Source: Escherichia coli (GTDB lineage Bacteria > Pseudomonadota > Gammaproteobacteria > Enterobacterales > Enterobacteriaceae). From it: a stretch of DNA of 64,000 nt. Below are positions 16,657 to 47,260 of this stretch, in pieces. Every line of letters begins with the position of its first letter. Positions within the stretch are counted from its first letter, which is position 1. A program made the translations under genes and the position numbers. The notes beneath the pieces are model-generated. The model saw nothing but the letters and a program-made list of their open reading frames with translations, had not been told where the DNA came from and ran no database searches. The stretch lies in the NCBI GenBank assembly GCA_032372955.1, contig GCA_032372955.1_4725.1; one strand, written 5' to 3'.

Positions 16657-17277
16657 ATGAAGGAACTCCGATATCTCGTCGTTCCGAATTGGGTAGAACA
16701 CGCGATTATTCGAAATGCGCGTGATGACTTACAGGTGTTATTAGATCCTAAAAGTCTTTTCGGCATACTATCGCCCAATGATGTAGGTTTTTATTTCGCA
16801 GCCCAGAACGTGCCTTTCTTCATCACGAAAGAACACGAACAAGCGAACCCTGCGGTTCATCTTAACAACCTGCTTGGTGGTATGTTTGCGTATCACTATG
16901 ACGAAACAGGTTTGCCGCCAGAGAAGAATGTTGATGTGCTGTGTGAGTACATCAATCGTTATGACAATGGTTATTACCATTTACTGACGAGCTATCCGCG
17001 TGATATTGAACGTCGTTTGGCGGATCCAACTTACAGCCCAGACAAACGTCCGTTGAGTGTTCGGGTGCGTTATGTTAATGAGGATGTGATCGCGATTGTT
17101 GTCGATTGTCTTCCTTTATTGGCAGAAGAGTTATTGAGCGATCGTATTGCTGATAACTACAGCGCCGTTATTGAACACCTGCGAATTAATATGAGTCTTG
17201 CGGAAGTTGCGCAATTGCCGCTGTTCCGTTCATATTGCACCAATCGTTCCATCCATTATCGCCTGCGTCGTTTGTGA
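16657..17277 (+). CDS. hypothetical protein
   Basis: 206-aa ORF, AGAGG RBS; divergent from the helicase gene across a 39-bp gap. Confidence 0.55.
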   Translation: MKELRYLVVPNWVEHAIIRNARDDLQVLLDPKSLFGILSPNDVGFYFAAQNVPFFITKEHEQANPAVHLNNLLGGMFAYHYDETGLPPEKNVDVLCEYINRYDNGYYHLLTSYPRDIERRLADPTYSPDKRPLSVRVRYVNEDVIAIVVDCLPLLAEELLSDRIADNYSAVIEHLRINMSLAEVAQLPLFRSYCTNRSIHYRLRRL

Positions 17278-17426
17278 CGTAGGGAAAAGTTATGCGGCAT
17301 TTTTAGTGTTGTATCACGACCTCAATAACGGTAAGTGTTTACTGATACTATAGTGGCGCATGCACGCGTGTACGCTATGGTCTATCGACCGACTTATATA
17401 AGTTAATTCTGTAAAGGATACTTTCA

Positions 17427-19649
17427 ATGAATGATAAAACCCTTCTTAGCCAACAGGTCGCGGCCACTCGCCAGTTCCTGACCGCTAATGGTAGCAAACC
17501 AGCAGACAAAGGTCTGGAGAACACCTTCCTGTCTATGGAATCTGCTTCTAAGGTTGATTTCAAATCCATGGACAAACTGGTTAACGAAATGGATGTTAAG
17601 AGCTTCAGCAGCGACATCCGTAAAGCAGAAGAACCGGTTCTGTCCATGCTGGGCTTCGAAACCACCACTCCGGAAGAGAAGCAGCGTATTGAAGAACAGC
17701 TGTTCACCATGAACGCACAGCAGGCTCGTGCAGCAGCACTGATCATGCTGGCTCATGGCAACCCGGTGGAATATGCTAAACAAGCACGTTCCATGAACAT
17801 CAGCACCACTCCGTCTGGCCGTGAAGTTGACAGCTCTAACTTCGTCATGATGGCCGCCGATTCCTGCGGTTGCGAATCTGAAGAACTGGTTCAGCTGTCC
17901 TACGACCAGAAAGAACTGCGTGACATGATGCCGTACTCCGTTGTGTTCAACGTGAAGGCTTCTCGTCTGAGCCGCATGGGTAACGAACTGTACAACACCA
18001 TCGTTCTGGCTCCGAACCAGATCGGTTACGACGTATCTTTCCGTCGTCCGCTGGTGTTCAACCACCTGCGTCGTAACGCTGACGGTACTCCGGCTGATTG
18101 GGTACGTCGTCCGCTGCTGGATGCGTTCATGTACAACGACGTTCTGTCCAACGACGTGACCGATCTGCATCCGATCTATCGTGCTGACGATGCTAACGCG
18201 CAGTACTTCGTTGACAAAACTATCGTTGCTCCGCGTGACATCGAAATTAAAGGCGTAACTTACAAAACGTCTTACCTGGCCGTTGATAAACTGATCGACA
18301 TGATCGGTATTGCTGAAGACGATAGCATCCTGGCTAACGGTTACAGCGACAACACCGACGCGCTGGACGCTCAGATCACGCTGACCAAAATCCTGGTGGA
18401 AATCAAATCCACCAAACACAGCAAAACCTCTTACGTACCGTTCGACGTATCTGGTCTGATCACCAACGGTTTCCAGAAATCCCTGGAAGGCGACTTCCGC
18501 AAAATGACCCTGGCGTTCGACACCCACTCCATCTTCGTTGATGAGAACACCGTTGACGTTAAAGGTGCACGAGCTGAAGCGCTGCAGGACATCATCGATT
18601 CGAAATCCGCTGCTCAGCTGGCAATCGAAGTTTACGGTTCTTCCAACGTAGAGAAAGCCGGTCTGCGTGTTAACGGCGCTAACGCTGAACTGTATCGTCT
18701 GGTCGATCGTGACAACATCGAACAACCGCGTAAGGGCGAAGAGTTCAAACAGCTGGCTGAAGACCTGAGCTTCAAACTGGTTGGTTACGAACTGCGTATC
18801 CGCCGTAACAACAGCAACCGTCGTGAGCGTGGTAAGCACCTTGACTTCAACATGAAGCAAGAACGTTACGCAATCGGCCTGCTGGCTCCGTTCTCCATTC
18901 CTCGTCCGCTGGATTGGGAAGAAAACGCTGCTGACCTGGACGTTCTGATCCAAGCTGCTAACGCACGTTTCGACAACCTGATGGTTGAGAAACTGTTCAG
19001 CTACAAAGACGCACTGAAAGCGGTTGCGACCTCTCGCTTCCGTCAGTTCGGCGACATCCAGATCGAAGGTTTCGGTCGTTACCTGATCCGTCCGTGGTTC
19101 GAAGAAATCAATCTGGACCTGGAGAAATCTGTTCAGGGTACCACCACTGCAGAACGTCGTGCTGAAGTGTCCGCTGCGATCATGAACGTGATTCGTGAGA
19201 TGGCATACCGCATGTACTCCGAGTCTGGTTATCAGCCAGCTCTGCAGCTGCTGTCTTCCAACGCTGATGAGAAACCGCGTTGCGTAGTAGCAACTGACAA
19301 CTACATCCCGCAGTTCCTGCAGACCGATGGCGATTTCCGTACCGTTGGTGTGAGCTTCAACTTCGTGGTTGTAGATAACCCGAACGTCATGCTGCGCGAT
19401 AAGATCTTCGTGACCCTGTCTCGTGGTATCCAGGGTTCTCCGGATCCGCTGACCTTCGGTATGTTCCTGTATGTACCGGAACTGGTATCTGTTGCTCAGG
19501 TTACCCGTAACGGTCAGGTTTCTAAAGAAACCATGGTTCAGCCGCGCTGCCGCTTCGTTAACAACTGCCCGCTGCTGGGTCTGATTAACGTTGTGAACCT
19601 GCGTAAGGTCTACACTGAAAACATCAAGCTGCCTGTTCAGACTAACTGA
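17427..19649 (+). CDS. abundant virion structural protein, probable major capsid protein
   Basis: 740-aa ORF, AAAGGA RBS. Extreme bias to high-expression codons (ctg, cgt, ggt, aac, ttc), unlike neighbours; size fits jumbo-phage capsid proteins. Identity not verified. Confidence 0.55.
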   Translation: MNDKTLLSQQVAATRQFLTANGSKPADKGLENTFLSMESASKVDFKSMDKLVNEMDVKSFSSDIRKAEEPVLSMLGFETTTPEEKQRIEEQLFTMNAQQARAAALIMLAHGNPVEYAKQARSMNISTTPSGREVDSSNFVMMAADSCGCESEELVQLSYDQKELRDMMPYSVVFNVKASRLSRMGNELYNTIVLAPNQIGYDVSFRRPLVFNHLRRNADGTPADWVRRPLLDAFMYNDVLSNDVTDLHPIYRADDANAQYFVDKTIVAPRDIEIKGVTYKTSYLAVDKLIDMIGIAEDDSILANGYSDNTDALDAQITLTKILVEIKSTKHSKTSYVPFDVSGLITNGFQKSLEGDFRKMTLAFDTHSIFVDENTVDVKGARAEALQDIIDSKSAAQLAIEVYGSSNVEKAGLRVNGANAELYRLVDRDNIEQPRKGEEFKQLAEDLSFKLVGYELRIRRNNSNRRERGKHLDFNMKQERYAIGLLAPFSIPRPLDWEENAADLDVLIQAANARFDNLMVEKLFSYKDALKAVATSRFRQFGDIQIEGFGRYLIRPWFEEINLDLEKSVQGTTTAERRAEVSAAIMNVIREMAYRMYSESGYQPALQLLSSNADEKPRCVVATDNYIPQFLQTDGDFRTVGVSFNFVVVDNPNVMLRDKIFVTLSRGIQGSPDPLTFGMFLYVPELVSVAQVTRNGQVSKETMVQPRCRFVNNCPLLGLINVVNLRKVYTENIKLPVQTN

Positions 19650-19736
19650 ACTACCGTAGCTGCTTCGTTGGACGATATTCTTGACGACAACGTTGCGGAT
19701 GGTTTCATTGCACCGGACATTCATCCGGCACCGTGA
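19650..19736 (+). other. in-frame 28-codon open extension after the capsid TGA stop
   Basis: No stop from 19650 to TGA at 19734-19736, same frame as capsid ORF; encodes TTVAASLDDILDDNVADGFIAPDIHPAP. Confidence 0.4.
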
Positions 19737-19748
19737 TACATAAGTCAG

Positions 19749-19778
19749 CCTCCCTCAGCCCGTAAGGGTTGGGGGAGG
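19749..19778 (+). terminator. conserved hairpin element variant followed by TTTCTATG
   Basis: CCTCCC-TCAG-CCC-GTAA-GGG-TTGG-GGGAGG, downstream of the capsid gene and its extension. Confidence 0.5.
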
Positions 19779-19820
19779 TTTCTATGCCGTTTACGTTGTG
19801 AATAGAAAAAATTTGACGCT

Positions 19821-19836
19821 TACATTACCTAGGTGA
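19821..19836 (+). promoter_or_regulatory. conserved promoter-like motif TACATTACCTAGGTGA (copy B)
   Basis: Exact repeat of copy A, ~150 nt upstream of the 19986 gene. Confidence 0.45.
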
Positions 19837-19985
19837 CAGACGCCTGCGATGAATAAGGCATAGACAACACGTAAGGTCGTTCTCGCGCTAGGAACGATGC
19901 TGAAACCGTCGGCTGTCGGCTCGATAAGAACAAGAAAAGGGAAATGCGTTATGCGTGATAGTTTTCAATCAGATGGAGGTTGACG

Positions 19986-21422
19986 ATGCCCTCCATGCCA
20001 ATATGTGATACCGCGTTCGAACCGTGGGATGGTACGCACGCTTATCGCATTGACGGTTATGCTGAACCGTTATATGACCTGGAATTAGGATGGGCATGTA
20101 TTAATGAATCTGGCCATACCGTGTTGGTGATCACCTCCGACAATATGTTCCAGTACATTCCTGGTAGGGTTGAGGACGGCAATACATTCAGGATCGTACG
20201 ACGTTCAAAATTTCGTAGTCCTGTAATAGTTGACAGCCATGACGTATCTAATGCGAATGGTGCATTCAGAAACTTCGTCTACGCGGGTAGACGTCGGGAT
20301 ATACTCCGTGTTAAAAACGGCACAGGTTACGCGATAAGGAAACCGCATATCCGTCGTATTGTTAACACAGAGAAAATGCCGCGTCTACTAGACCAGCAAG
20401 ACTGGTACGATACGCTGGATGAAATATGTCAAATTGACCTCAACACGTTGAACTTTAATCAACCCGCATATGTCGCGCAAATCAACGTGGCAATCGTAAA
20501 AGTTAAAGGAGAATACAAAAGCGCAGACCACGTTACGAAAGGGATTGATCACCCCTACATCGCAACGTGCGCGCGGAGCTTGACGGGAAAAACAGAGGGT
20601 TTCCGAATTCTCGGAACGCAACTCACTATCCATTGGACGCCACCCGACTTTCATAATCCGTATAGCTTATGGGTTAACGTGTTAGGGAAAGCGTTCGAAA
20701 TAAAACCAACGAATGGAGCAGGCGCGCCAGGTATGTTGGTTACCTTCGGGAATAATGACTCCATCTTCGTACCGGTCGAAGATTTGGAAAAAGAGATGTG
20801 GAAGTACAATGTTTTTCCGACACGTGAATCGGCATTGCATTGGCGCGACCCCGTCCAAAAAGAAGCCTACAAAAATGATTTCGACCAACGTAGCTACGAA
20901 CGTAAGGCATCGGAAGAAACCCTTAAAGGGGTGATGGCTGAAATGCGACGTATGGCGGATGAACACAAGGCAGTTATCGCACAGATGCATGAGGCGCATC
21001 GCGCCGACGCAAAGCTGCGCGATGAACAACATAAAGCCGAACTCGATCAGCTTAAAGACGAACAAAAACGTAGGATGGAACAACACCAAGCCGAAATGAA
21101 ACGTCAAGATGATCTACGTAAACAAATACACGAAGATTATCAAGCTGATTTAAAACGTCGTGATGATGAGGCTAAACGCAAACATGAAGAATTCGTCGCT
21201 GAACTTCGTCGTCGAGATGAAGAATCCAAACGTAAGCACGACGAGTTTGCTGCTGAGATACGCCGACGTGATGAAGAGGCAAAAAGACAACGTGAAGCGG
21301 AAGAAGCGCGACGTCAACGTAACGTCGATGTTTGGAAAGCCGCTGCGAGTATAACTGCGGCCGTTGTCGGTATAGGTATGACCTTTTTCAAGATTCTTGA
21401 GAAGGCGTCATCGAAAAAGTAA
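19986..21422 (+). CDS. hypothetical protein with charged helical repeats and C-terminal transmembrane anchor
   Basis: Start chosen at ATG 19986 (GGAGG RBS). C-terminal ~130 aa is E/R/K-rich with tandem RRRDEEAKRKHEEF repeats, then hydrophobic AAASITAAVVGIGMTFF. Confidence 0.65.
   Translation: MPSMPICDTAFEPWDGTHAYRIDGYAEPLYDLELGWACINESGHTVLVITSDNMFQYIPGRVEDGNTFRIVRRSKFRSPVIVDSHDVSNANGAFRNFVYAGRRRDILRVKNGTGYAIRKPHIRRIVNTEKMPRLLDQQDWYDTLDEICQIDLNTLNFNQPAYVAQINVAIVKVKGEYKSADHVTKGIDHPYIATCARSLTGKTEGFRILGTQLTIHWTPPDFHNPYSLWVNVLGKAFEIKPTNGAGAPGMLVTFGNNDSIFVPVEDLEKEMWKYNVFPTRESALHWRDPVQKEAYKNDFDQRSYERKASEETLKGVMAEMRRMADEHKAVIAQMHEAHRADAKLRDEQHKAELDQLKDEQKRRMEQHQAEMKRQDDLRKQIHEDYQADLKRRDDEAKRKHEEFVAELRRRDEESKRKHDEFAAEIRRRDEEAKRQREAEEARRQRNVDVWKAAASITAAVVGIGMTFFKILEKASSKK
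21153..21314 (+). repeat. tandem ~54-nt (18-aa) coding repeats
   Basis: KRRDDEAKRKHEEFVAEL / RRRDEESKRKHDEFAAEI / RRRDEEAKRQREAEEARR read directly from the translation. Confidence 0.6.
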
Positions 21423-31680: not shown

Positions 31681-32616
31681 GTGAGTGATACGGTAACAAC
31701 TATTGACGACACCGAACTTTACCCGGTCGACGTCTCTTTACCCTCATCCGATCTCGTGTATGGTCTTATCAACCACGATAACCCACCTCAGAACGGAGAG
31801 CATGTTCTAACCCCTGAATTATTGGTTTTAGGAACACCAACCACCAACCAAAGCGCCTACGAGCGCGACACCCAGATTACGGCGACAGCAACCGCTAAGC
31901 TTACCGAGTTGGACGATTATGAAGGTTCGACGACGCTGTATTACGATCGTATTAACATCGGTGCGTATCTGCGTAACGTAGCGCCTATTCTTATCGATGC
32001 GCCAGACGCCGCCAAGATGCGTGATATCTGGCCTATCATCAAAGAACGTTTCGGTCTTGGCCTTACCGCGGAAGAAATCGTCAACGACGAACTTAACTGG
32101 GATACCGTTAACGGACAATTGCTTCGTGTCGCATCTAACTGCCTGGCTTGGACGGGGAGCGTTCGTATCTTGATGAAGTCGCGTGTACCGAATCTTGATG
32201 ATATTATCGCGATCAAGGAGCTGGACGGCCTTAAGTTCTTCGGTCAAGGCGTACGCGCTAGCGGCGAGATTTACAGTTACAGCCGTGATACTTCTGATTA
32301 CGGTGAACTGCTGGCTTCGCTGGTAACAGGTACCGTTATTAGCGATGTGGTGGTTGCCGATCTTCTGGCTGAAATGACTACCGATCGTTGGGTATTAGAC
32401 GACAACGCCGCACCGTATAACCTGTATAATGCTAAAGTGGCTTTCAACGGTGAGTTAGGCGGACGTATTCCAGCAAGAGCAGGTTACCAATACGGTATCG
32501 AGATCAGTCTGGATGAAAACTACTGTACTGCCGTTGGCGGTCCATTGATTTTCTATTACAATGTCGACGGACATACCGCAAGCCTCCAGGGTCGTTCTCC
32601 AGAAGAACAAGGCTAA
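31681..32616 (+). CDS. paralogue family protein (YYDRI / LAWTGSV motifs), member 1
   Basis: 311-aa ORF, GTG start with GAGGAGG RBS; motifs YYDRINIG, ERFGLGLT, LAWTGSV. Confidence 0.65.
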   Translation: MSDTVTTIDDTELYPVDVSLPSSDLVYGLINHDNPPQNGEHVLTPELLVLGTPTTNQSAYERDTQITATATAKLTELDDYEGSTTLYYDRINIGAYLRNVAPILIDAPDAAKMRDIWPIIKERFGLGLTAEEIVNDELNWDTVNGQLLRVASNCLAWTGSVRILMKSRVPNLDDIIAIKELDGLKFFGQGVRASGEIYSYSRDTSDYGELLASLVTGTVISDVVVADLLAEMTTDRWVLDDNAAPYNLYNAKVAFNGELGGRIPARAGYQYGIEISLDENYCTAVGGPLIFYYNVDGHTASLQGRSPEEQG

Positions 32617-32626
32617 GGAATAAACA

Positions 32627-33478
32627 ATGAGTCAGAAATTGTTAAACAAAAGTCCTAAAGTACTGGTCGCTGAACTTATTCAGGCAGCCAATCCTGACTT
32701 CGACTTTAACTTCGATGCAATTGATATCACGGATGTTGCTGAAAACGGAAACCACGCGTATAAACGGAACACGCGCGCTAAGGTATCGCCTTCGGCAACA
32801 GTAACACCAGCACAATACCGTGAAAGCAGCTACGTGTGGTACGATCGTATCCCTATCCAAGACTTCTTCTTGGGGATGGAACCGAAGCTTGCTATCGATG
32901 CCGGGGTTAAAACGACGCACGATCTTATCCCTCTGATTCAATCAACGTACGGAATCGTTATCGATCAGGATAGCTGCGTCGATTCTCCGATCGTACGAGG
33001 CGATGAATATCCGTTCCCGCACACCGTAGAATTGAAAACCACCGGATTGGCTTGGACGGGAAGTGTTACGTTCTATCTCCTCGATAGTGCCCACGATATT
33101 GCGGGGATGATGAAGACTTCGGTGATGACCGGTCTCAATTTCCCGTACTACACCGCAAATCGTATCCAGGCATTGGTCTACAGTTACGCCATAGACTGTA
33201 CAGCGATCCGTTCCGATCTCGCCGGATTAAAAGTTGGCGGTAACTTAAGCGCACTGGTTAGCTTATTCAACAACGTTGCGCCAACCCCGTGGGTTTATAA
33301 CGGCCGTGAAGACGAAAACAACCTTTACGGAGCCACCGTGCTTGCAACCGGTAAAACAACAGAACTTATCGCACAGGGTTATCCTGTTAACCCGGCGTTC
33401 GCTAACGCTGTCATCGTTACGCTTAGCCAAGATTACTGCACGAACTACGGCGGTATCCTGTTGATGCAATATAACTGA
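32627..33478 (+). CDS. paralogue family protein, member 2
   Basis: 283-aa ORF, AAGGAA RBS; motifs VWYDRIPI, STYGIVID, LAWTGSV. Confidence 0.65.
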   Translation: MSQKLLNKSPKVLVAELIQAANPDFDFNFDAIDITDVAENGNHAYKRNTRAKVSPSATVTPAQYRESSYVWYDRIPIQDFFLGMEPKLAIDAGVKTTHDLIPLIQSTYGIVIDQDSCVDSPIVRGDEYPFPHTVELKTTGLAWTGSVTFYLLDSAHDIAGMMKTSVMTGLNFPYYTANRIQALVYSYAIDCTAIRSDLAGLKVGGNLSALVSLFNNVAPTPWVYNGREDENNLYGATVLATGKTTELIAQGYPVNPAFANAVIVTLSQDYCTNYGGILLMQYN

Positions 33479-33494
33479 TTAAATAGGAAAAGAC

Positions 33495-34379
33495 ATGGCT
33501 TCTACACAAATCCGTGCTACCGATCGTATCGTCCGTACGATTATCGGCGGTCAAGTACAAACTAACCTTACGCTCGGTCTTCCTCATGCATGGGAAGAAC
33601 ACAGCACCTTGAATGAAAAGCTTCAGATTCAATCAAAGGTTTACCCCGAGGGTAATCCTGCTGTACGTTACTTCTGTATCGGCAACCAGGGTCACGAATT
33701 CATCCGCAACGCTAACGGTATCCCTTCCTCGATGCCGATCGCTCACGAAGCAAGCGATCTATCACCGTGGAAAATCAAACCTTTCGTAATGCGTGAAGTT
33801 GGTAACGACTTGACCACGGACGAACGCGCTAAATTTGGGTTACGTCGTATTGAGACACTGGAAAGCGGTAAAAAGTATATCTGTTATTACGGTCGTCGCA
33901 TCGATTTCGATAACGTTGTCCGCTCCATGCGTTATACCAAATACGTCGACGGTGTCGCTCAGACCATCGAATGGCATCCAACCGACGCGAACCTCAACCC
34001 CGCCCGACCAGATATTCCAACAACCGGAATTCTGGTAGCGACCGGGGAGTACTACGACTACAGCTGTAAAGTCTCTTTGGTTTGGACGCCATGGGATATT
34101 AACGAATATCTCAATGTGGCTAAACTCACCGAAGGTGGTGAAGAGTACGCGGTTATTTCTGAAATTGGGATGGTCTCTGCGGGCGATAAAATCGTTCGTG
34201 CTGATGATGGTCAAGGTTCGGCCTTCGACATGAACGAAATCGTCGGTGCGCAGGTTACCGATCTGATTTCGACTTACCACAACCTTTATACCACCAACGA
34301 TACGCTGACACTGAAATACGACCTTGGTGCGTTGGAAGCTCGTAAGGCAGGCCCGACGGGCGCAGAAATCCTACCGTAA
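33495..34379 (+). CDS. paralogue family protein, divergent member 3
   Basis: 294-aa ORF, AGGAAAA RBS; weaker motifs YYGRRIDF and LVWTPWD in the same order. Confidence 0.55.
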   Translation: MASTQIRATDRIVRTIIGGQVQTNLTLGLPHAWEEHSTLNEKLQIQSKVYPEGNPAVRYFCIGNQGHEFIRNANGIPSSMPIAHEASDLSPWKIKPFVMREVGNDLTTDERAKFGLRRIETLESGKKYICYYGRRIDFDNVVRSMRYTKYVDGVAQTIEWHPTDANLNPARPDIPTTGILVATGEYYDYSCKVSLVWTPWDINEYLNVAKLTEGGEEYAVISEIGMVSAGDKIVRADDGQGSAFDMNEIVGAQVTDLISTYHNLYTTNDTLTLKYDLGALEARKAGPTGAEILP

Positions 34380-34394
34380 CCTAAGGGGTGTTAA

Positions 34395-35300
34395 ATGGAG
34401 TACAGTGAAATCCTAGGGTTAGAATCGAAAGAAATCCTCTTTCGGCTGATTCGAAAGCATAGCGATTTCGATGCTCGAGGCGTAACGCTGGATAAACTGG
34501 TTATCGGTGAGGCTTCTGAAAGCACAGGGTACAAGCGTAACAGCAAGTTAACCGTGCATCCCCAGCCGGGTTCAGGGCTGGTGAACTCTGTCGACATCTA
34601 TTATAACCGCATCGATCTTGGTAAACTGGGTACTTGGCCTGGCGGACAGCACCACTGGCCCGTCGAGATCGAAACCTTAGATGCGCTAACCAAGGTCTCT
34701 GAGATCCTACCTGTCTTAGCATCGACGTACGGTATCCTTCTCAACAAAACCGAGATTGTCGACGCAGATCTGGATAAGTCCAAGTCACCGATACAGGTTG
34801 TGATAACACCTAAACCCGGTAACCAAGTATGGGTTGGTCAGTTACTTGTCGAGTTAACTTCAGGACATAATGACCTCAACAACCTCGTTCGCAACAATAT
34901 GTTGGCTGGGTTGAATTATATCATCGATCGAGATAGCAGTAAACTCCCGGGCGCTATTGTTTCGTACAACTGGTTCGTATCTGCTGGTGTTCTGGCGTCA
35001 CTTACCGATGGTTATACGTTAACCTCAGGTGATACGCAATCGGAGGCACTAATCGCAGAAATGAACATGCTGCAATTGGGTCTCTCTGAAGAGATCGACG
35101 GCCTTATGGTCAACGATCGCTGGGTATTGTCAGCAATACCTGGACCACTCAACTTGCAGAATGCGAGAGTAATAGCCGATCCAGAGCAATTCAAAACACT
35201 ACCGTTTGGCGTGCGTACGGATGTTAGTAAAGCCGTCGTACTTCAACTTAGTGTGATGAATACGCTCATCGATGGTTATCTAACGCTATATGTAGCATAA
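34395..35300 (+). CDS. paralogue family protein, member 4
   Basis: 301-aa ORF; motifs YYNRIDLG, STYGILLN, VWVGQL. Confidence 0.65.
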   Translation: MEYSEILGLESKEILFRLIRKHSDFDARGVTLDKLVIGEASESTGYKRNSKLTVHPQPGSGLVNSVDIYYNRIDLGKLGTWPGGQHHWPVEIETLDALTKVSEILPVLASTYGILLNKTEIVDADLDKSKSPIQVVITPKPGNQVWVGQLLVELTSGHNDLNNLVRNNMLAGLNYIIDRDSSKLPGAIVSYNWFVSAGVLASLTDGYTLTSGDTQSEALIAEMNMLQLGLSEEIDGLMVNDRWVLSAIPGPLNLQNARVIADPEQFKTLPFGVRTDVSKAVVLQLSVMNTLIDGYLTLYVA

Positions 35301-36736: not shown

Positions 36737-38890
36737 ATGACAGATGAAATTAAACGCCTTCCGTATAACCCGCAGGGGAATTTGGATGGCGCATGGGTTC
36801 CAGAAGAACCCGTCACTGTCCGTCCTTCCACGGGGACCGGATTTAACTTTCTCGTTCCTAAATACGCGCCATATTTTCGTAATGGGTTAAAGATCTACAA
36901 CCCTGAAACAAACGCGTATCTGGAAGAAGGCGTTGACTTTTTATGCACTCACCCCTTCCGTGCCATGGCTGCGCTGACCGGCCTGGAATTATACGGTTCC
37001 ATCATGCTGTTGGACACCGCATTCAGTGGACAGTTGCAACTGAACTACTATTCACTGGGGGGTGAGTTTACACTTGATCAACAACAAATTCTTAACGTTT
37101 TAGCCAACAACCTCTACGACCCCCGCGTTACGTTCTGGGAAAAGGTTGCTGACGTTCCTTCCGTATTCCCGCCAATCAACCACCAACATAATGTCGAAAC
37201 CGACACAATGACGTGGGACGATGTGGTGGCGGCAATCGAATCATTGAAAGAACCGCTTGAAGAAGGGTTCAATAAAGCAATGACCGCATTGCTGCAGCAC
37301 GAGAATCGTCGCGATAACCCCCATGGCGTAACCAAGGCTCAAGTTGGATTGGGGAATGTTCAGAACTTCACAACGGCGACCGAGAGCGATCTGGAAACCA
37401 TCGGTGAAAATCTGTACATGACGTTGGCGATGACGCGTAAGATGATCGCTAACCTGAGTGGTGATAGTGCTGCTGCACACATCAGCAACTACAACAACCC
37501 ACACAAGGTAACTAAAGCCCAGGTGGGACTCGGAAACGTTGAGAACTACGGTACAGCCGATAGTAATGCAACCATTACCGGTACGGCCACAAATCTGTAC
37601 ACAACACCAGCGGGTGTACGTGCGGCAATCAAGGCGATCACGGACGGCTTAAGTACGCGCATCGATCATGTCAACGCTGCGTTAACAACCCATACCGGGG
37701 ATAATAACAACCCTCACGCTGTTACGAAAGCACAGGTAGGACTGGGGGACGTACAGAACTACGGTGTGGCGTCTAATGGGGAAGCCGGTGCAGGTGTTGC
37801 TAACAACAAATACATGACGCCCGCAACCACAGCAGCCGCCATCGCAGCGTTAATCACCCCAACCGTAACCGAACATATCGGTAACACCAACAACCCACAT
37901 GGGGTGACCAAAGCCCAAGTCGGTCTGGGAAGCGTGCAGAACTTTGGGGTTGCTACTACCCAAGAAGCTATCGACGGTCAGGCTAACAACAAGTACATGA
38001 CACCAATACTTGTTCGTTACGCGATCGAGCAAATGGCTGGTCAAGGGTTCAGTAGTCACATCGCAAATACCGAGAACCCGCACCAAGTATCTAAAGCACA
38101 GGTAGGGTTGGGGAGTGTTGAAAACTATCCTGTCGCTTCTGATGTGGAAGCACAAACAGGTGTAGCGACCAACCGCTATATGACACCGGCTGCGACAAAA
38201 GCGGCAATCATCGCTTTAGCGGGTGATGGTTTTGCGGCACACGTTGTCGATAAGAGCAACCCGCATGAAGTAACAAAATCTCAAGTTGGGTTAGGGAACG
38301 TACAGGACTTTGCTGTCGCCACCGACACGCAAGCTGCCGACAAGACTAACCAGACGACGTACATGACACCGTACTCGACTTACAAGTCAATTGCGGCGTT
38401 TGCGGCGTTAGCCGATCATACGCACACAGCCGAACAAGTCGGTGCGCTCCCCATCAATGGGGGTAAGTTAACCGGACCAATCGATCTTTCAGCAACGTCT
38501 ATCACGGGTACCGGACTCGGTATCGATGGTGCTAATGGTTCAATCAACGTCAATAAGTTGACCATCAACCAGCTTCTGGAAGCTTACGGTGGCATTGAAT
38601 CCAGTGATACGATTAAAATCCTGAACGACGATGAGACGCCCGCTAACTTCCTTGCCGATGGCGATCTCGAAGGGATCAAATGGGTTAACATCAACAGCCA
38701 AGAACCTGGAGAGAACCAAGACGGCGAGAAGATGCAGAAGATCGGTAAGCTGAGCGATTACCTTAAGAACGATTATTTAACCAGCTTGAAGACGAACACA
38801 GCGTTCCGTGATGTCTTCCAAGCACTGCTTAGGGAATTCCTTGCTAACTTCAACGCGGTTATCAAAGCAACCGACTTCGAGACGTTATAA
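36737..38890 (+). CDS. tail fibre protein with T4-type repeats
   Basis: 717-aa ORF, AAAGGG RBS; six copies of NPHxVTKAQVGLGNVxNY spaced ~60 aa apart. Confidence 0.8.
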   Translation: MTDEIKRLPYNPQGNLDGAWVPEEPVTVRPSTGTGFNFLVPKYAPYFRNGLKIYNPETNAYLEEGVDFLCTHPFRAMAALTGLELYGSIMLLDTAFSGQLQLNYYSLGGEFTLDQQQILNVLANNLYDPRVTFWEKVADVPSVFPPINHQHNVETDTMTWDDVVAAIESLKEPLEEGFNKAMTALLQHENRRDNPHGVTKAQVGLGNVQNFTTATESDLETIGENLYMTLAMTRKMIANLSGDSAAAHISNYNNPHKVTKAQVGLGNVENYGTADSNATITGTATNLYTTPAGVRAAIKAITDGLSTRIDHVNAALTTHTGDNNNPHAVTKAQVGLGDVQNYGVASNGEAGAGVANNKYMTPATTAAAIAALITPTVTEHIGNTNNPHGVTKAQVGLGSVQNFGVATTQEAIDGQANNKYMTPILVRYAIEQMAGQGFSSHIANTENPHQVSKAQVGLGSVENYPVASDVEAQTGVATNRYMTPAATKAAIIALAGDGFAAHVVDKSNPHEVTKSQVGLGNVQDFAVATDTQAADKTNQTTYMTPYSTYKSIAAFAALADHTHTAEQVGALPINGGKLTGPIDLSATSITGTGLGIDGANGSINVNKLTINQLLEAYGGIESSDTIKILNDDETPANFLADGDLEGIKWVNINSQEPGENQDGEKMQKIGKLSDYLKNDYLTSLKTNTAFRDVFQALLREFLANFNAVIKATDFETL

Positions 38891-45682: not shown

Positions 45683-46225
45683 TTAGCCAACAACGCTAAC
45701 GGTCGGTTTCACGAAGCCATCAGCTACGTTATCCGCCAGAACGGTTGCCAGGTCATCTTTCGGTGCAGCTGCGTAGGTCAGTGCAACCTGCAGAGTGCCG
45801 GTATATACCAGGCCATTCTCGATCGCATTCAGAGTTACCTGACCAACAGTACCTGCAGACAGCTGGAAGGTTTCTTCATTGATTTCACCGGTCAGGGAAG
45901 CCAGACCGAATTTGGTGACCAGCTTGCTTACCAGCTCGGAAGCCTTAATGCTGTCGGTACCGTGCGGCAGTTCGAAAGTAACATCGCCAGTTACATCAGC
46001 GAAAACTTCGGACAGAGCCAGACGATCGTAGTAGAACTGCTGAGTACCCTGCAGGTTAGCTGCTTCAGCTGCAGCATCCAGCTGAATAACGGTGTTCTTT
46101 TCATGTTCGGAAGACGTCTGCGGAGTACCGAACTGCAGTTCTTCTTCGGTCAGCGTGCGGGTTGCTTTGGTGTTGATAAGATCAAGCAGAAGGGATTTCG
46201 CTGCTTTGTTAAAGTCTAAGGCCAT
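45683..46225 (-). CDS. abundant small protein, short member of the YYDR/LxYTG paralogue family
   Basis: Start chosen at internal ATG (MALDFNK) with GAGGACA RBS; high-expression codon usage like the capsid gene; motifs FYYDRLAL, TKFGLASLT, LVYTGTLQV. Confidence 0.65.
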   Translation of the reverse strand: MALDFNKAAKSLLLDLINTKATRTLTEEELQFGTPQTSSEHEKNTVIQLDAAAEAANLQGTQQFYYDRLALSEVFADVTGDVTFELPHGTDSIKASELVSKLVTKFGLASLTGEINEETFQLSAGTVGQVTLNAIENGLVYTGTLQVALTYAAAPKDDLATVLADNVADGFVKPTVSVVG

Positions 46226-46366: not shown

Positions 46367-47260
46367 ATGGCAACTCAAGTTTCGCTTACTTTAAAAACAC
46401 CTTGGCAACTTATCGTTGATGAGATTAACAAACTCAACGCCGACACTGGTGCCAGCTTCCAATACACCGACCTTAAATACGTTCTTAAAGAAAAGAATCC
46501 TTCTGCTCCAGAAGCAACTTTAACGCTTAGCCCTGGTGATGGTACCCCTTACTTCAATAACCGTGATGTTACCTACCATCGTCTGGATCTGGCTAAATGG
46601 TTCCAGAAAATCGCTGTACGTGTTAACGTTACTGCTGACACCACCATCGGTGATGTGGTTGACCTTGTAGCTCAACGCTACGGTATGATCACACCGACCG
46701 GTGAGAAGTTCCTGGATAAAGATAAAGACATCAAAGCCGATACGTTATCTAATCCGGTTACCTTCAACGAGCATGGTATCCAGACGATCACCCTGGAAGC
46801 TAAAGAAGATTCGTTGGCGTGGTACGGCTCTGTTCAAGTTAAAGTTTATAACACCACGCTGGATCTGGCTAACATCATCAAGGTTACCAATCTGGGTAAC
46901 TTAACCTACGTTGATGAAGGCGACGGCACCAAAACGTCAGCACGTCTGTTAACCTATCCGTTAGACTTCAGTACTTACACCGCAGGTTTACAAGCTATTA
47001 CCAGCAACGATACCAAGATCGATGCAGGCTTAGCAGGTAACCTGACTACCCTGATCAAAGAGCAGACTGGTGTAAGTGATGATATCATCAATGAACTGAA
47101 AACCAATCTGCAAACAGCTACCTTTGTCTATAACGGTGCTACCACCGGGTCTACTGACAAAGGTGTTAACGCTACGTACAGCAATGTGCTGGTGCTGTCG
47201 TTAGCTGACGGTACTCACACCTACGGTAAAGCAGTATTCGGTTATAACGTTTCCGAATAA
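46367..47260 (+). CDS. paralogue family protein, member 5
   Basis: 297-aa ORF, AGAGG RBS; motifs VTYHRLDLA, QRYGMITP, LAWYGSVQV; divergent from the 45683 gene. Confidence 0.65.
   Translation: MATQVSLTLKTPWQLIVDEINKLNADTGASFQYTDLKYVLKEKNPSAPEATLTLSPGDGTPYFNNRDVTYHRLDLAKWFQKIAVRVNVTADTTIGDVVDLVAQRYGMITPTGEKFLDKDKDIKADTLSNPVTFNEHGIQTITLEAKEDSLAWYGSVQVKVYNTTLDLANIIKVTNLGNLTYVDEGDGTKTSARLLTYPLDFSTYTAGLQAITSNDTKIDAGLAGNLTTLIKEQTGVSDDIINELKTNLQTATFVYNGATTGSTDKGVNATYSNVLVLSLADGTHTYGKAVFGYNVSE

Follow-up and report, generated by a model that had tools for sequence, protein, structure and literature searches.

A candidate leaky UGA stop and a DUF7941-type docking peptide at the end of the major capsid gene of a Goslar-like jumbo phage

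In the levivirus Q-beta, a single UGA ends the coat protein and is read through at about 5% by a host transfer RNA (tRNA), giving a few extended subunits per particle that are needed for infectivity (PMC7026636). Among described systems this is the closest in logic to the one considered here, as one gene serves two stoichiometries and the extension is displayed on the capsid. In this study, we analysed the end of the major capsid protein gene in a 64,000-nucleotide stretch of DNA filed under Escherichia coli (GenBank assembly GCA_032372955.1, contig GCA_032372955.1_4725.1; hereafter “the window”), where the TGA stop codon is followed, in the same frame, by codons for a conserved peptide. While Q-beta is a small single-stranded RNA virus with a folded extension of 196 residues, the present case concerns a 237-kb double-stranded DNA (dsDNA) jumbo phage, an HK97-fold capsid protein and a predicted linear motif of 15-28 residues copied from another protein family.

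Luteoviruses, too, have a leaky stop behind their coat protein, and read-through there yields a minor extended subunit, the coat protein-read-through domain protein or CP-RTD (PMC7026636). It likewise protrudes from the capsid and mediates outside interactions, but it belongs to a eukaryotic plant RNA virus, is a large folded domain and depends on a defined stimulatory RNA context. In T7 and T3 (gp10A/10B), Lactobacillus phage A2 and the Listeria phages A118, A500 and PSA, capsid extensions are made by programmed frameshifting and are sometimes fused in relatives, an “indifference” to the recoding route (PMC5009743). These are tailed dsDNA phages with a minor, accessory, C-terminally extended capsid protein, and their mix of states resembles the fused, UGA-separated and absent tails described below. 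However, they shift by -1 or +1 at slippery sites, whereas here the extension lies in the zero frame behind the stop. Our search of a literature library brought up no description of stop-codon read-through for the capsid gene of a tailed phage, nor of the present feature for chimalliviruses.

The last point of comparison is a fibre model proposed for the nucleus-forming jumbo phage Goslar (Chimalliviridae). Two of its proteins, gp23 and gp22, are present at about 2140 and 580 copies per virion, and neither is placed in the cryo-electron microscopy model (Basu et al. 2026 preprint, 10.64898/2026.04.21.720040). According to the same preprint, gp22 forms filaments in vitro, and AlphaFold predicts that the DUF7941 linker docks head-to-tail onto the next N-terminal domain, from which virion fibres are proposed. 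In that work gp23 consists of the DUF7941 N-terminal domain and the linker only, while in gp86, gp92 and gp161 the N-terminal module is followed by carbohydrate-binding domains (10.64898/2026.04.21.720040). The preprint is silent on the capsid stop codon, on read-through and on a capsid anchor, and a literature search found nothing relevant on DUF7941 beyond it. The peptide behind the capsid stop has the same L, h-h, h, G, F/L spacing as the linker and is nearly identical to the gp23 tail; it differs from the proteins of the fibre model by the lack of a DUF7941 domain.

We propose that read-through of this UGA makes a minor capsid isoform whose DUF7941 docking peptide would anchor fibres, a model to which, from the comparison of sequences, we give a probability of roughly 0.6. 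Its first step, the expression of the extension by programmed UGA read-through, appears distinctly probable when considered on its own.

Layout and conservation of the capsid gene end

Positions 17000-20200 of the window are 98.3% identical in nucleotide sequence to Escherichia phage vB_EcoM_Goslar. The open reading frame (ORF) at 17427-19649 on the plus strand (sense codons 17427-19646) encodes a protein of 740 residues that is the orthologue of Goslar gp41 (gp041), annotated as the major head protein; the PhiKZ_MCP fold (PF25620) is recorded on proteins identical to it. Its last codons are CAG ACT AAC, and it stops at a TGA (19647-19649, context AAC TGA ACT) that is a candidate leaky stop. 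The same frame then remains open for 28 sense codons (19650-19733), reading TTVAASLDDILDDNVADGFIAPDIHPAP, up to a second TGA at 19734-19736 where the extended isoform would end. A strong terminator-like hairpin, with a 15-bp stem and a GUAA loop and without a canonical U-tract, is found at 19747-19780, only after the extension. This layout is as a preliminary description of the locus had given it, including the conserved terminator hairpin placed past the extension. A simple scan for promoters and terminators around the capsid locus gave no result.

Two further features were noticed at this gene end. The heptamer TATGCCG follows the terminator hairpin at 19783-19789 and is also present in our comparison sequences L004, L005, L040 (FLC9), L041 (RP12) and L042 (FLC1-1B). 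It is shared, on the 3′ side of the capsid gene, by phages of E. coli, Ralstonia and Burkholderia and possibly acts as a conserved signal for transcription; late promoters of phiKZ contain TATG. On the opposite strand, an ORF of 766 codons (17424-19724, minus) begins within the extension and mirrors the entire capsid gene; it is most likely a shadow ORF that results from the strong codon bias of the capsid gene, and no gene.

An open frame behind a stop is no evidence by itself, since 18 of the 56 genes of the window have one of at least 28 sense codons. TGA is a minority stop in the window, where 45 of the 56 genes end in TAA. The argument for expression comes instead from the comparison of capsid loci, which favours the programmed UGA read-through with a minor extended capsid form that had been listed among the candidate explanations: the TGA and the peptide are conserved, the stop moves while the frame is kept, and the stop is biased towards TGA.

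Close relatives come first. The TGA and the extension are kept in eight Goslar-like assemblies, and in four Goslar-like genomes the three variable sites of the extension are all synonymous third positions, while the adjacent intergenic region varies at about twice the rate of the extension and has indels in addition. This conservation excludes a recently acquired stop, as had been considered, and the occurrence of the TGA in eight independent assemblies excludes an assembly error. At larger distances, a TGA followed by an in-frame peptide of the type [D/N]-L-x-G-F and then by a terminator was found in at least 13 distinct chimallivirus lineages. In L005, whose capsid protein is 68% identical, the gene end reads ...STPAP TGA SLLELLGDGLLDGFGYPELP TAA; in Burkholderia phage FLC9, ...HSV TGA RTRLVEVTDLDGFKVYPG TAA; in Ralstonia phages RP12/RP31, ...TTTP TGA RIGNTSPDGFNEFGA TAA; and in FLC1-1B/FLC4-3B, ...TPTP TGA AFRVTDLDGFHEYGS TAA. 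L015 and at least eight further sequence types of IMG/VR share the arrangement, and the order of stop, extension and hairpin is also seen in L005, FLC9, RP12 and FLC1-1B. In all cultured phages with this layout the annotated capsid protein stops at the TGA.

Within these lineages the peptide appears to be maintained in the capsid frame. The alignment of the window with L005 is gapless from LPV to DGF, with the TGA at +4 in one and at +9 in the other; the stop has therefore moved while frame and spacing were retained. Between L015 and FLC9, conserved residues of the extension show six synonymous changes, and the TGA is retained in both. A loose version of the motif, sought after the stop in 81 distinct loci, occurs in frames 0, +1 and +2 in a ratio of 17:2:0. 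Moreover, 13 of the 14 lineages with an extension stop at TGA. Among the 68 other capsid genes, nearly all of which end in TAA, only 4 do so (Fisher's exact test, 7e-11, on lineages that are not phylogenetically independent). Finally, in other relatives the capsid protein runs on into the tail as a fusion, uninterrupted by a stop, namely in pEa_SNUABM_37 (ending in AVLDGLNTQPAP), LucasX (NVYLDGLKYPTP), Proteus phage 10 (TDLDGLKQPGAKD), SA002 and RTH11.

Several observations weigh against this reading, and most of them are also what would be seen if an ancestral fused tail had been cut by a nonsense mutation and its codons, now untranslated, were being lost. The tail is absent from the close relative L004 and from many other lineages, and it is thus dispensable. 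In L117, a more divergent Goslar-like variant, the extension shows seven non-synonymous changes for one synonymous change, at exposed positions; every hydrophobic position, NVADGF and the Pro are kept, the substitutions are conservative (D/E, I/V, D/N), and the D/N polymorphism has its counterpart in gp23 tails. At L084/L085:2395 (IMG/VR) a TAA stands before a typical in-frame extension, LTDLVKVTDLNGFYPF, the only exception among the 14. In the L078:2695 region (IMGVR_UViG_3300046507_000773) the capsid stop is TAA and the motif, VQLLDGFAIFHP followed by a stop, lies in the +1 frame. Moreover, we found no conserved stimulatory RNA element and no fixed +4 base (A, U, G, A, A and G across lineages). 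A decaying relic, however, would not last in at least 13 lineages with an intact frame and no internal stops, and it offers no reason for synonymous changes at conserved residues or for TGA in 13 of 14 cases. Nor does it fit with hydrophobic anchor residues that are invariant, with a tail that tracks the gp23-like tail of its own lineage (see below), or with a stop whose position differs between related lineages while the frame holds. We thus regard decay as improbable.

Some of these loci show peculiarities of their own. The motif ORF of L078 overlaps the end of the capsid gene; expression by a frameshift, an indel or sequencing error, or decay of the tail might each explain this arrangement. 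In L004 (Logan contig ERR3928893_12524), which among relatives without the extension is the closest, the capsid protein is 71% identical and ends with TAA, with the terminator directly after it. A gene for a GIY-YIG homing endonuclease lies immediately 3′ of the capsid gene (L004:5434-5973), and the loss of the tail may be linked to the invasion by this endonuclease. In two other IMG/VR sequences, from L097:2629 and from L102:2392 onward, an in-frame Ig-like domain of the Big_2 type follows the capsid stop (Pfam 2.7e-9 and 4.7e-7). The stop of L097 is TGA; as codon 3 is an ATG preceded by AAGGG, however, the domain could be a separate gene. In L102 the stop is TAA, with no early start codon. 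These two loci may represent the display of an Ig-like domain by read-through, as a counterpart of the Ig domains that are added by frameshifting in other phages.

Could the extension be translated independently of the capsid gene? It had been described as having neither a start codon nor a ribosome-binding site. The second part agrees with our inspection, as no Shine-Dalgarno-like sequence is visible upstream; the first does not, as an in-frame TTG is present at 19668-19670, exactly at the first Leu of the motif. Re-initiation at this codon would release a free peptide of 22 residues, (M)DDILDDNVADGFIAPDIHPAP, that might modulate the polymerisation of DUF7941 proteins, and an in-frame TTG or GTG is found in L005, FLC9 and L015 as well. 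Yet no ATG, GTG or TTG stands in frame in the extensions of RP12 and FLC1-1B, which hence cannot be independent ORFs. In addition, a separate peptide would not need the capsid frame, in conflict with the 17:2:0 frame bias, and it does not account for the relatives whose capsid protein includes this tail as a fused part. Re-initiation appears very improbable to us, and read-through from the capsid gene remains our preferred route of expression.

The codons of the extension are in line with this preference. The body of the capsid gene is strongly optimised: 64 of its 67 Leu codons are CTG, 32 of its 38 Ile codons are ATC, and just 1 of its 52 Ser codons is TCG. In the extension, by contrast, Leu is written as TTG or CTT, the three Ile are all ATT and the Ser is TCG. 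The optimisation breaks off abruptly at the TGA. A conserved peptide written in untuned codons fits with low-level read-through of a stop that usually works. UGA is the stop codon most prone to read-through (PMC7026636). Goslar is reported to encode no tRNAs (PMC6563267) and no tRNA gene is present in the window, so that the decoding of UGA would need a near-cognate tRNA of the host; for the same reason a suppressor-dependent stop, another of the early suggestions, is unlikely.

We also considered recoding by other means and conservation of the nucleic acid itself. A frameshift of the T7 10B type was rejected, since the extension lies in frame 0 directly after the stop. Selenocysteine recoding was rejected as well: no Rfam family, including the selenocysteine-insertion element SECIS, was matched at E-values up to 10, and the nucleotides after the UGA are not conserved between lineages. 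More generally, the conserved entity could be a nucleic-acid element (acting in messenger RNA (mRNA) stability, as part of the terminator or as a selenocysteine-insertion hairpin), or the stop a sequencing or assembly error. Indeed, the extension/hairpin region folds better than its shuffles (z = -4.1), and the stop is enclosed by a hairpin at 19635-19651. The z-score is, however, dominated by the terminator hairpin, and conservation across lineages is at the level of amino acids, with divergent codons; an error is contradicted by the eight assemblies mentioned above. Such explanations are hardly credible and are already largely refuted. As to the small hairpin itself (plus strand, GUUCAG-ACUAA-CUGAAC, 6 bp), it holds the UGA within its 3′ arm and is absent from L005 and from the Ralstonia phages. 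Being identical in all Goslar-like genomes, it offers no covariation to test.

The extension and the linker of DUF7941 proteins

The preliminary description had also pointed to a resemblance between the extension and the C-terminus of the gene at 46225-45683 (minus strand), and this resemblance proved to be significant. This gene encodes 180 residues, ends in KDDLATVLADNVADGFVKPTVSVVG followed by tandem TAA TAA, and is the orthologue of Goslar gp23 (gp023), matching Pfam DUF7941 at 1.2e-21 over profile positions 4-174 of 276. Across the six frames of the window, the string DNVADGF is present at two places only, in the extension and in the gp23 tail, and both proteins terminate exactly nine residues past the G-F pair. 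When the 180-residue protein was searched with phmmer against the 1880 six-frame stop-to-stop segments of the window, the extension ranked third (E=0.0085). The two coding sequences differ by the codon changes that had been noted (GTT/GTA, GCG/GCT and GGT/GGC).

To place the peptide within the family (PF25613), for which a profile search gave 2874 representative DUF7941 proteins, we derived a linker consensus from the alignment of the best 148. It reads D-L-x-x-[VLI]-[ILV]-x-x-x-x-L-x-G-[LF]-x-Y, the two L positions being conserved at 82% and 81%, G at 77% and L/F at 82%. A scoring matrix built from 144 members, with gp23-type rows excluded, was then used to scan the 66,964 stop-free 16-mers of the window. 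The paralogues gp31, gp22, gp34, gp33 and gp23 take ranks one to five and the capsid extension takes rank six; its core motif SLDDILDDNVADGFIAP (19665-19715) scores 16.1 bits. A seventh site, at 16.0 bits, lies near the C-terminus of gp29, and the next best reaches only 9.6. The capsid tails of L005, pEa37 and L018 score 17.9-21.9 bits on the same matrix.

The extension is thus a carrier of the DUF7941 linker motif. It is not a member of the family, because it has no N-terminal globular domain and is too short for one; alone or together with the capsid C-terminus it has no Pfam match even at E-values up to 10. The idea of a C-terminal tag common to abundant virion proteins was therefore right in spirit, as gp23 and the extension do share their ends, but a generic terminal tag it is not, because the motif is internal, between two domains, in most DUF7941 paralogues.

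In gp23 itself the motif lies at 45707-45754 (minus strand), in the C-terminal tail that follows the N-terminal globular domain. Because gp23 holds only the N-terminal domain and the linker, this tail is the strand proposed to dock. No other part of the protein is as conserved across orthologues of about 50% identity, in which L159, G170 and F171 are invariant, and in the AlphaFold2 model of gp23 (mean predicted local distance difference test score, pLDDT, 89.7) the tail scores 76-80 and is confidently placed. Among Goslar-like phages (homologues P0005-P0026), gp23 proteins share 86-97% amino acid identity, compared to about 99% for the capsid protein, while their C-terminal tail is nearly fixed. 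Variability combined with a fixed tail fits a surface-exposed, possibly host-interacting fibre subunit.

If the extension docks in the same pocket as the gp23 tail, the two might be expected to change together. We compared them at 15 positions anchored on the G-F pair. RP12 ORF070 is a gp23-like protein of 184 residues (family profile 2.6e-6; Pfam DUF7941 weak, below the gathering threshold) that ends in LIGNPDINGFNEYAAPAV, and its FLC1-1B orthologue ends in LIQNQNLDGFNEYVAP. The Goslar extension matches the Goslar gp23 tail at 9 of 15 positions and the tails of the Ralstonia phages at 2-3; conversely, the RP12 extension matches the Ralstonia-phage tails (RP12/FLC1-1B) at 8 and that of Goslar gp23 at 3. 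With 8-9 matches within a clade against 2-3 across clades, the capsid tail tracks the docking tail of its own lineage, as expected from one co-evolving pocket or from homogenisation by recombination. For LucasX and RAY, the comparison of DUF7941 linkers with the capsid tail of the same phage gave a generic similarity and no lineage-specific signal.

The remaining motif sites of the window lie in candidate partners. The orthologue of gp22 (46367-47260, plus strand) is a full-length DUF7941 protein (Pfam 1.1e-50) with its linker motif at 46862 (score 30.0). A cluster of paralogues identified by phmmer and alignment flanks gp32 at 31681-35300 (plus strand) and would provide further candidate acceptor domains; it comprises gp34 (31681-32616, score 29.4), gp33 (32627-33478, 19.0) and gp31 (34395-35300, 30.6), all on the plus strand. 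Outside the family, the tail-fibre/peripheral-baseplate-like gp29 (ORF 36737-38890) carries KLSDYLKNDYLTSLKT at 38747-38794 (plus strand), about 47 residues from its C-terminus. From its sequence, gp29 might be another protein beyond DUF7941 that bears the docking motif, possibly a baseplate or tail-fibre anchor.

A minor capsid isoform as a possible fibre anchor

In the model that we favour, one mRNA would give two proteins. Most ribosomes would stop at the UGA (19647-19649) and release the capsid protein of 740 residues, while a few percent or fewer would decode it with a near-cognate tRNA of the host, of which tRNA-Trp is the likeliest, and extend the chain by 28 residues that bear the linker motif D/S-L-x-x-h-h-x-x-x-x-h-D-G-F. 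A protein that has only the tail can act only as the donor end of a head-to-tail polymer; the tailed capsid subunit, devoid of a DUF7941 domain, would accordingly be a fixed donor that captures the N-terminal domain of gp23 or gp22. Units made of an N-terminal domain and a tail, such as gp23, would then follow, and proteins of the gp86, gp92 and gp161 type would take the distal position. With this polarity the receptor-binding domains would be at the fibre tips. How many anchors a capsid has, from a few to a few tens, would depend on the leakiness of the stop; read-through of 1-5% among 1615 subunits would give 16-80 of them.

Published structural work is compatible with such a position. The Goslar capsid protein is modelled to residue 740, and its C-terminal arms form a six-stranded barrel at the centre of the hexon (10.64898/2026.04.21.720040). 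Since the arms meet there, the extension would emerge, and the fibre be anchored, at the hexon centre, probably on the outward side. In phiKZ, the C-terminal arm of the capsid protein contacts the outer-surface protein gp244 in pentons (PMC11297242), and a C-terminal fusion of the Goslar capsid protein to green fluorescent protein localises like capsids (10.64898/2026.04.21.720040). From these elements and from the comparisons above we infer the occurrence and efficiency of read-through, the outward orientation of the tail and its binding to DUF7941 N-terminal domains.

The anchoring part of the model also faces difficulties. The published models and PDB chains of the Goslar major capsid protein end at residue 740, and no extended protein has been observed. 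The published mass spectrometry is uninformative on this point, because it was searched against the annotated proteome only; the diagnostic tryptic peptide across the stop would have 35 residues, with no K or R. The authors of the preprint anchor DUF7941 fibres at the peripheral baseplate, not at the capsid (10.64898/2026.04.21.720040), and the docking on which we rely is itself an AlphaFold prediction made by others. The short extensions of the FLC9 type fit only the second half of the motif, so that on the 16-column matrix those of L015, RP12 and FLC9 score poorly or are too short.

These points leave room for another role of a tail that is indeed produced by read-through. It could bind a third partner to which DUF7941 proteins bind as well (for example an assembly factor, a capsid-docking site or a host surface), block or regulate the hexon pore, or compete with fibre growth by capping the filament. 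All the evidence for expression applies equally to such roles, the docking of linkers on DUF7941 N-terminal domains is so far an AlphaFold prediction, and phages with a fused tail put the motif on all of their approximately 1600 subunits, a number difficult to square with one fibre per tail. On the other hand, no third partner is known, the motif lies between two domains in most DUF7941 paralogues, and the covariation with the gp23-like tail of the same lineage is what one co-evolving pocket would give. A role other than fibre anchoring therefore seems rather unlikely to us, and capsid anchoring of DUF7941 fibres remains the reading that we prefer.

Capsid ends and fibres in jumbo phages

If our model is true, stop-codon read-through would join the recoding repertoire of tailed dsDNA phages, in which frameshifting has until now been the explanation given for capsid extensions. 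It also reveals a systematic gap in annotation, as the TGA is taken for the end of the capsid gene in Goslar, RP12, RP31, FLC9, FLC1-1B and many jumbo phages from metagenomes. For phage engineering, it suggests a natural and tolerated display site at the capsid C-terminus, with a copy number that could be tuned.

The model offers a testable answer to the question of where on a Goslar virion the DUF7941 fibre proteins, at roughly 2700 copies, are attached. Distributed over six baseplate sites, they would form fibres of about 3 microns by the calculation of the preprint (10.64898/2026.04.21.720040); tens of capsid anchors would allow shorter and more plausible fibres. More tentatively, and as a possibility that we do not hold to be probable, the end of the capsid gene may act as a dosage switch for a capsid-anchored cloud of host-recognition fibres. 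The docking peptide would be fused and thus present on all subunits, placed behind a leaky UGA and present on a few percent, or deleted, and lineages would have toggled repeatedly between these states. The copies of gp22 and gp23 that are not yet placed would then attach at the capsid and not only at the baseplate, and no earlier case of programmed stop-codon read-through would have been described for a capsid gene among tailed dsDNA phages.

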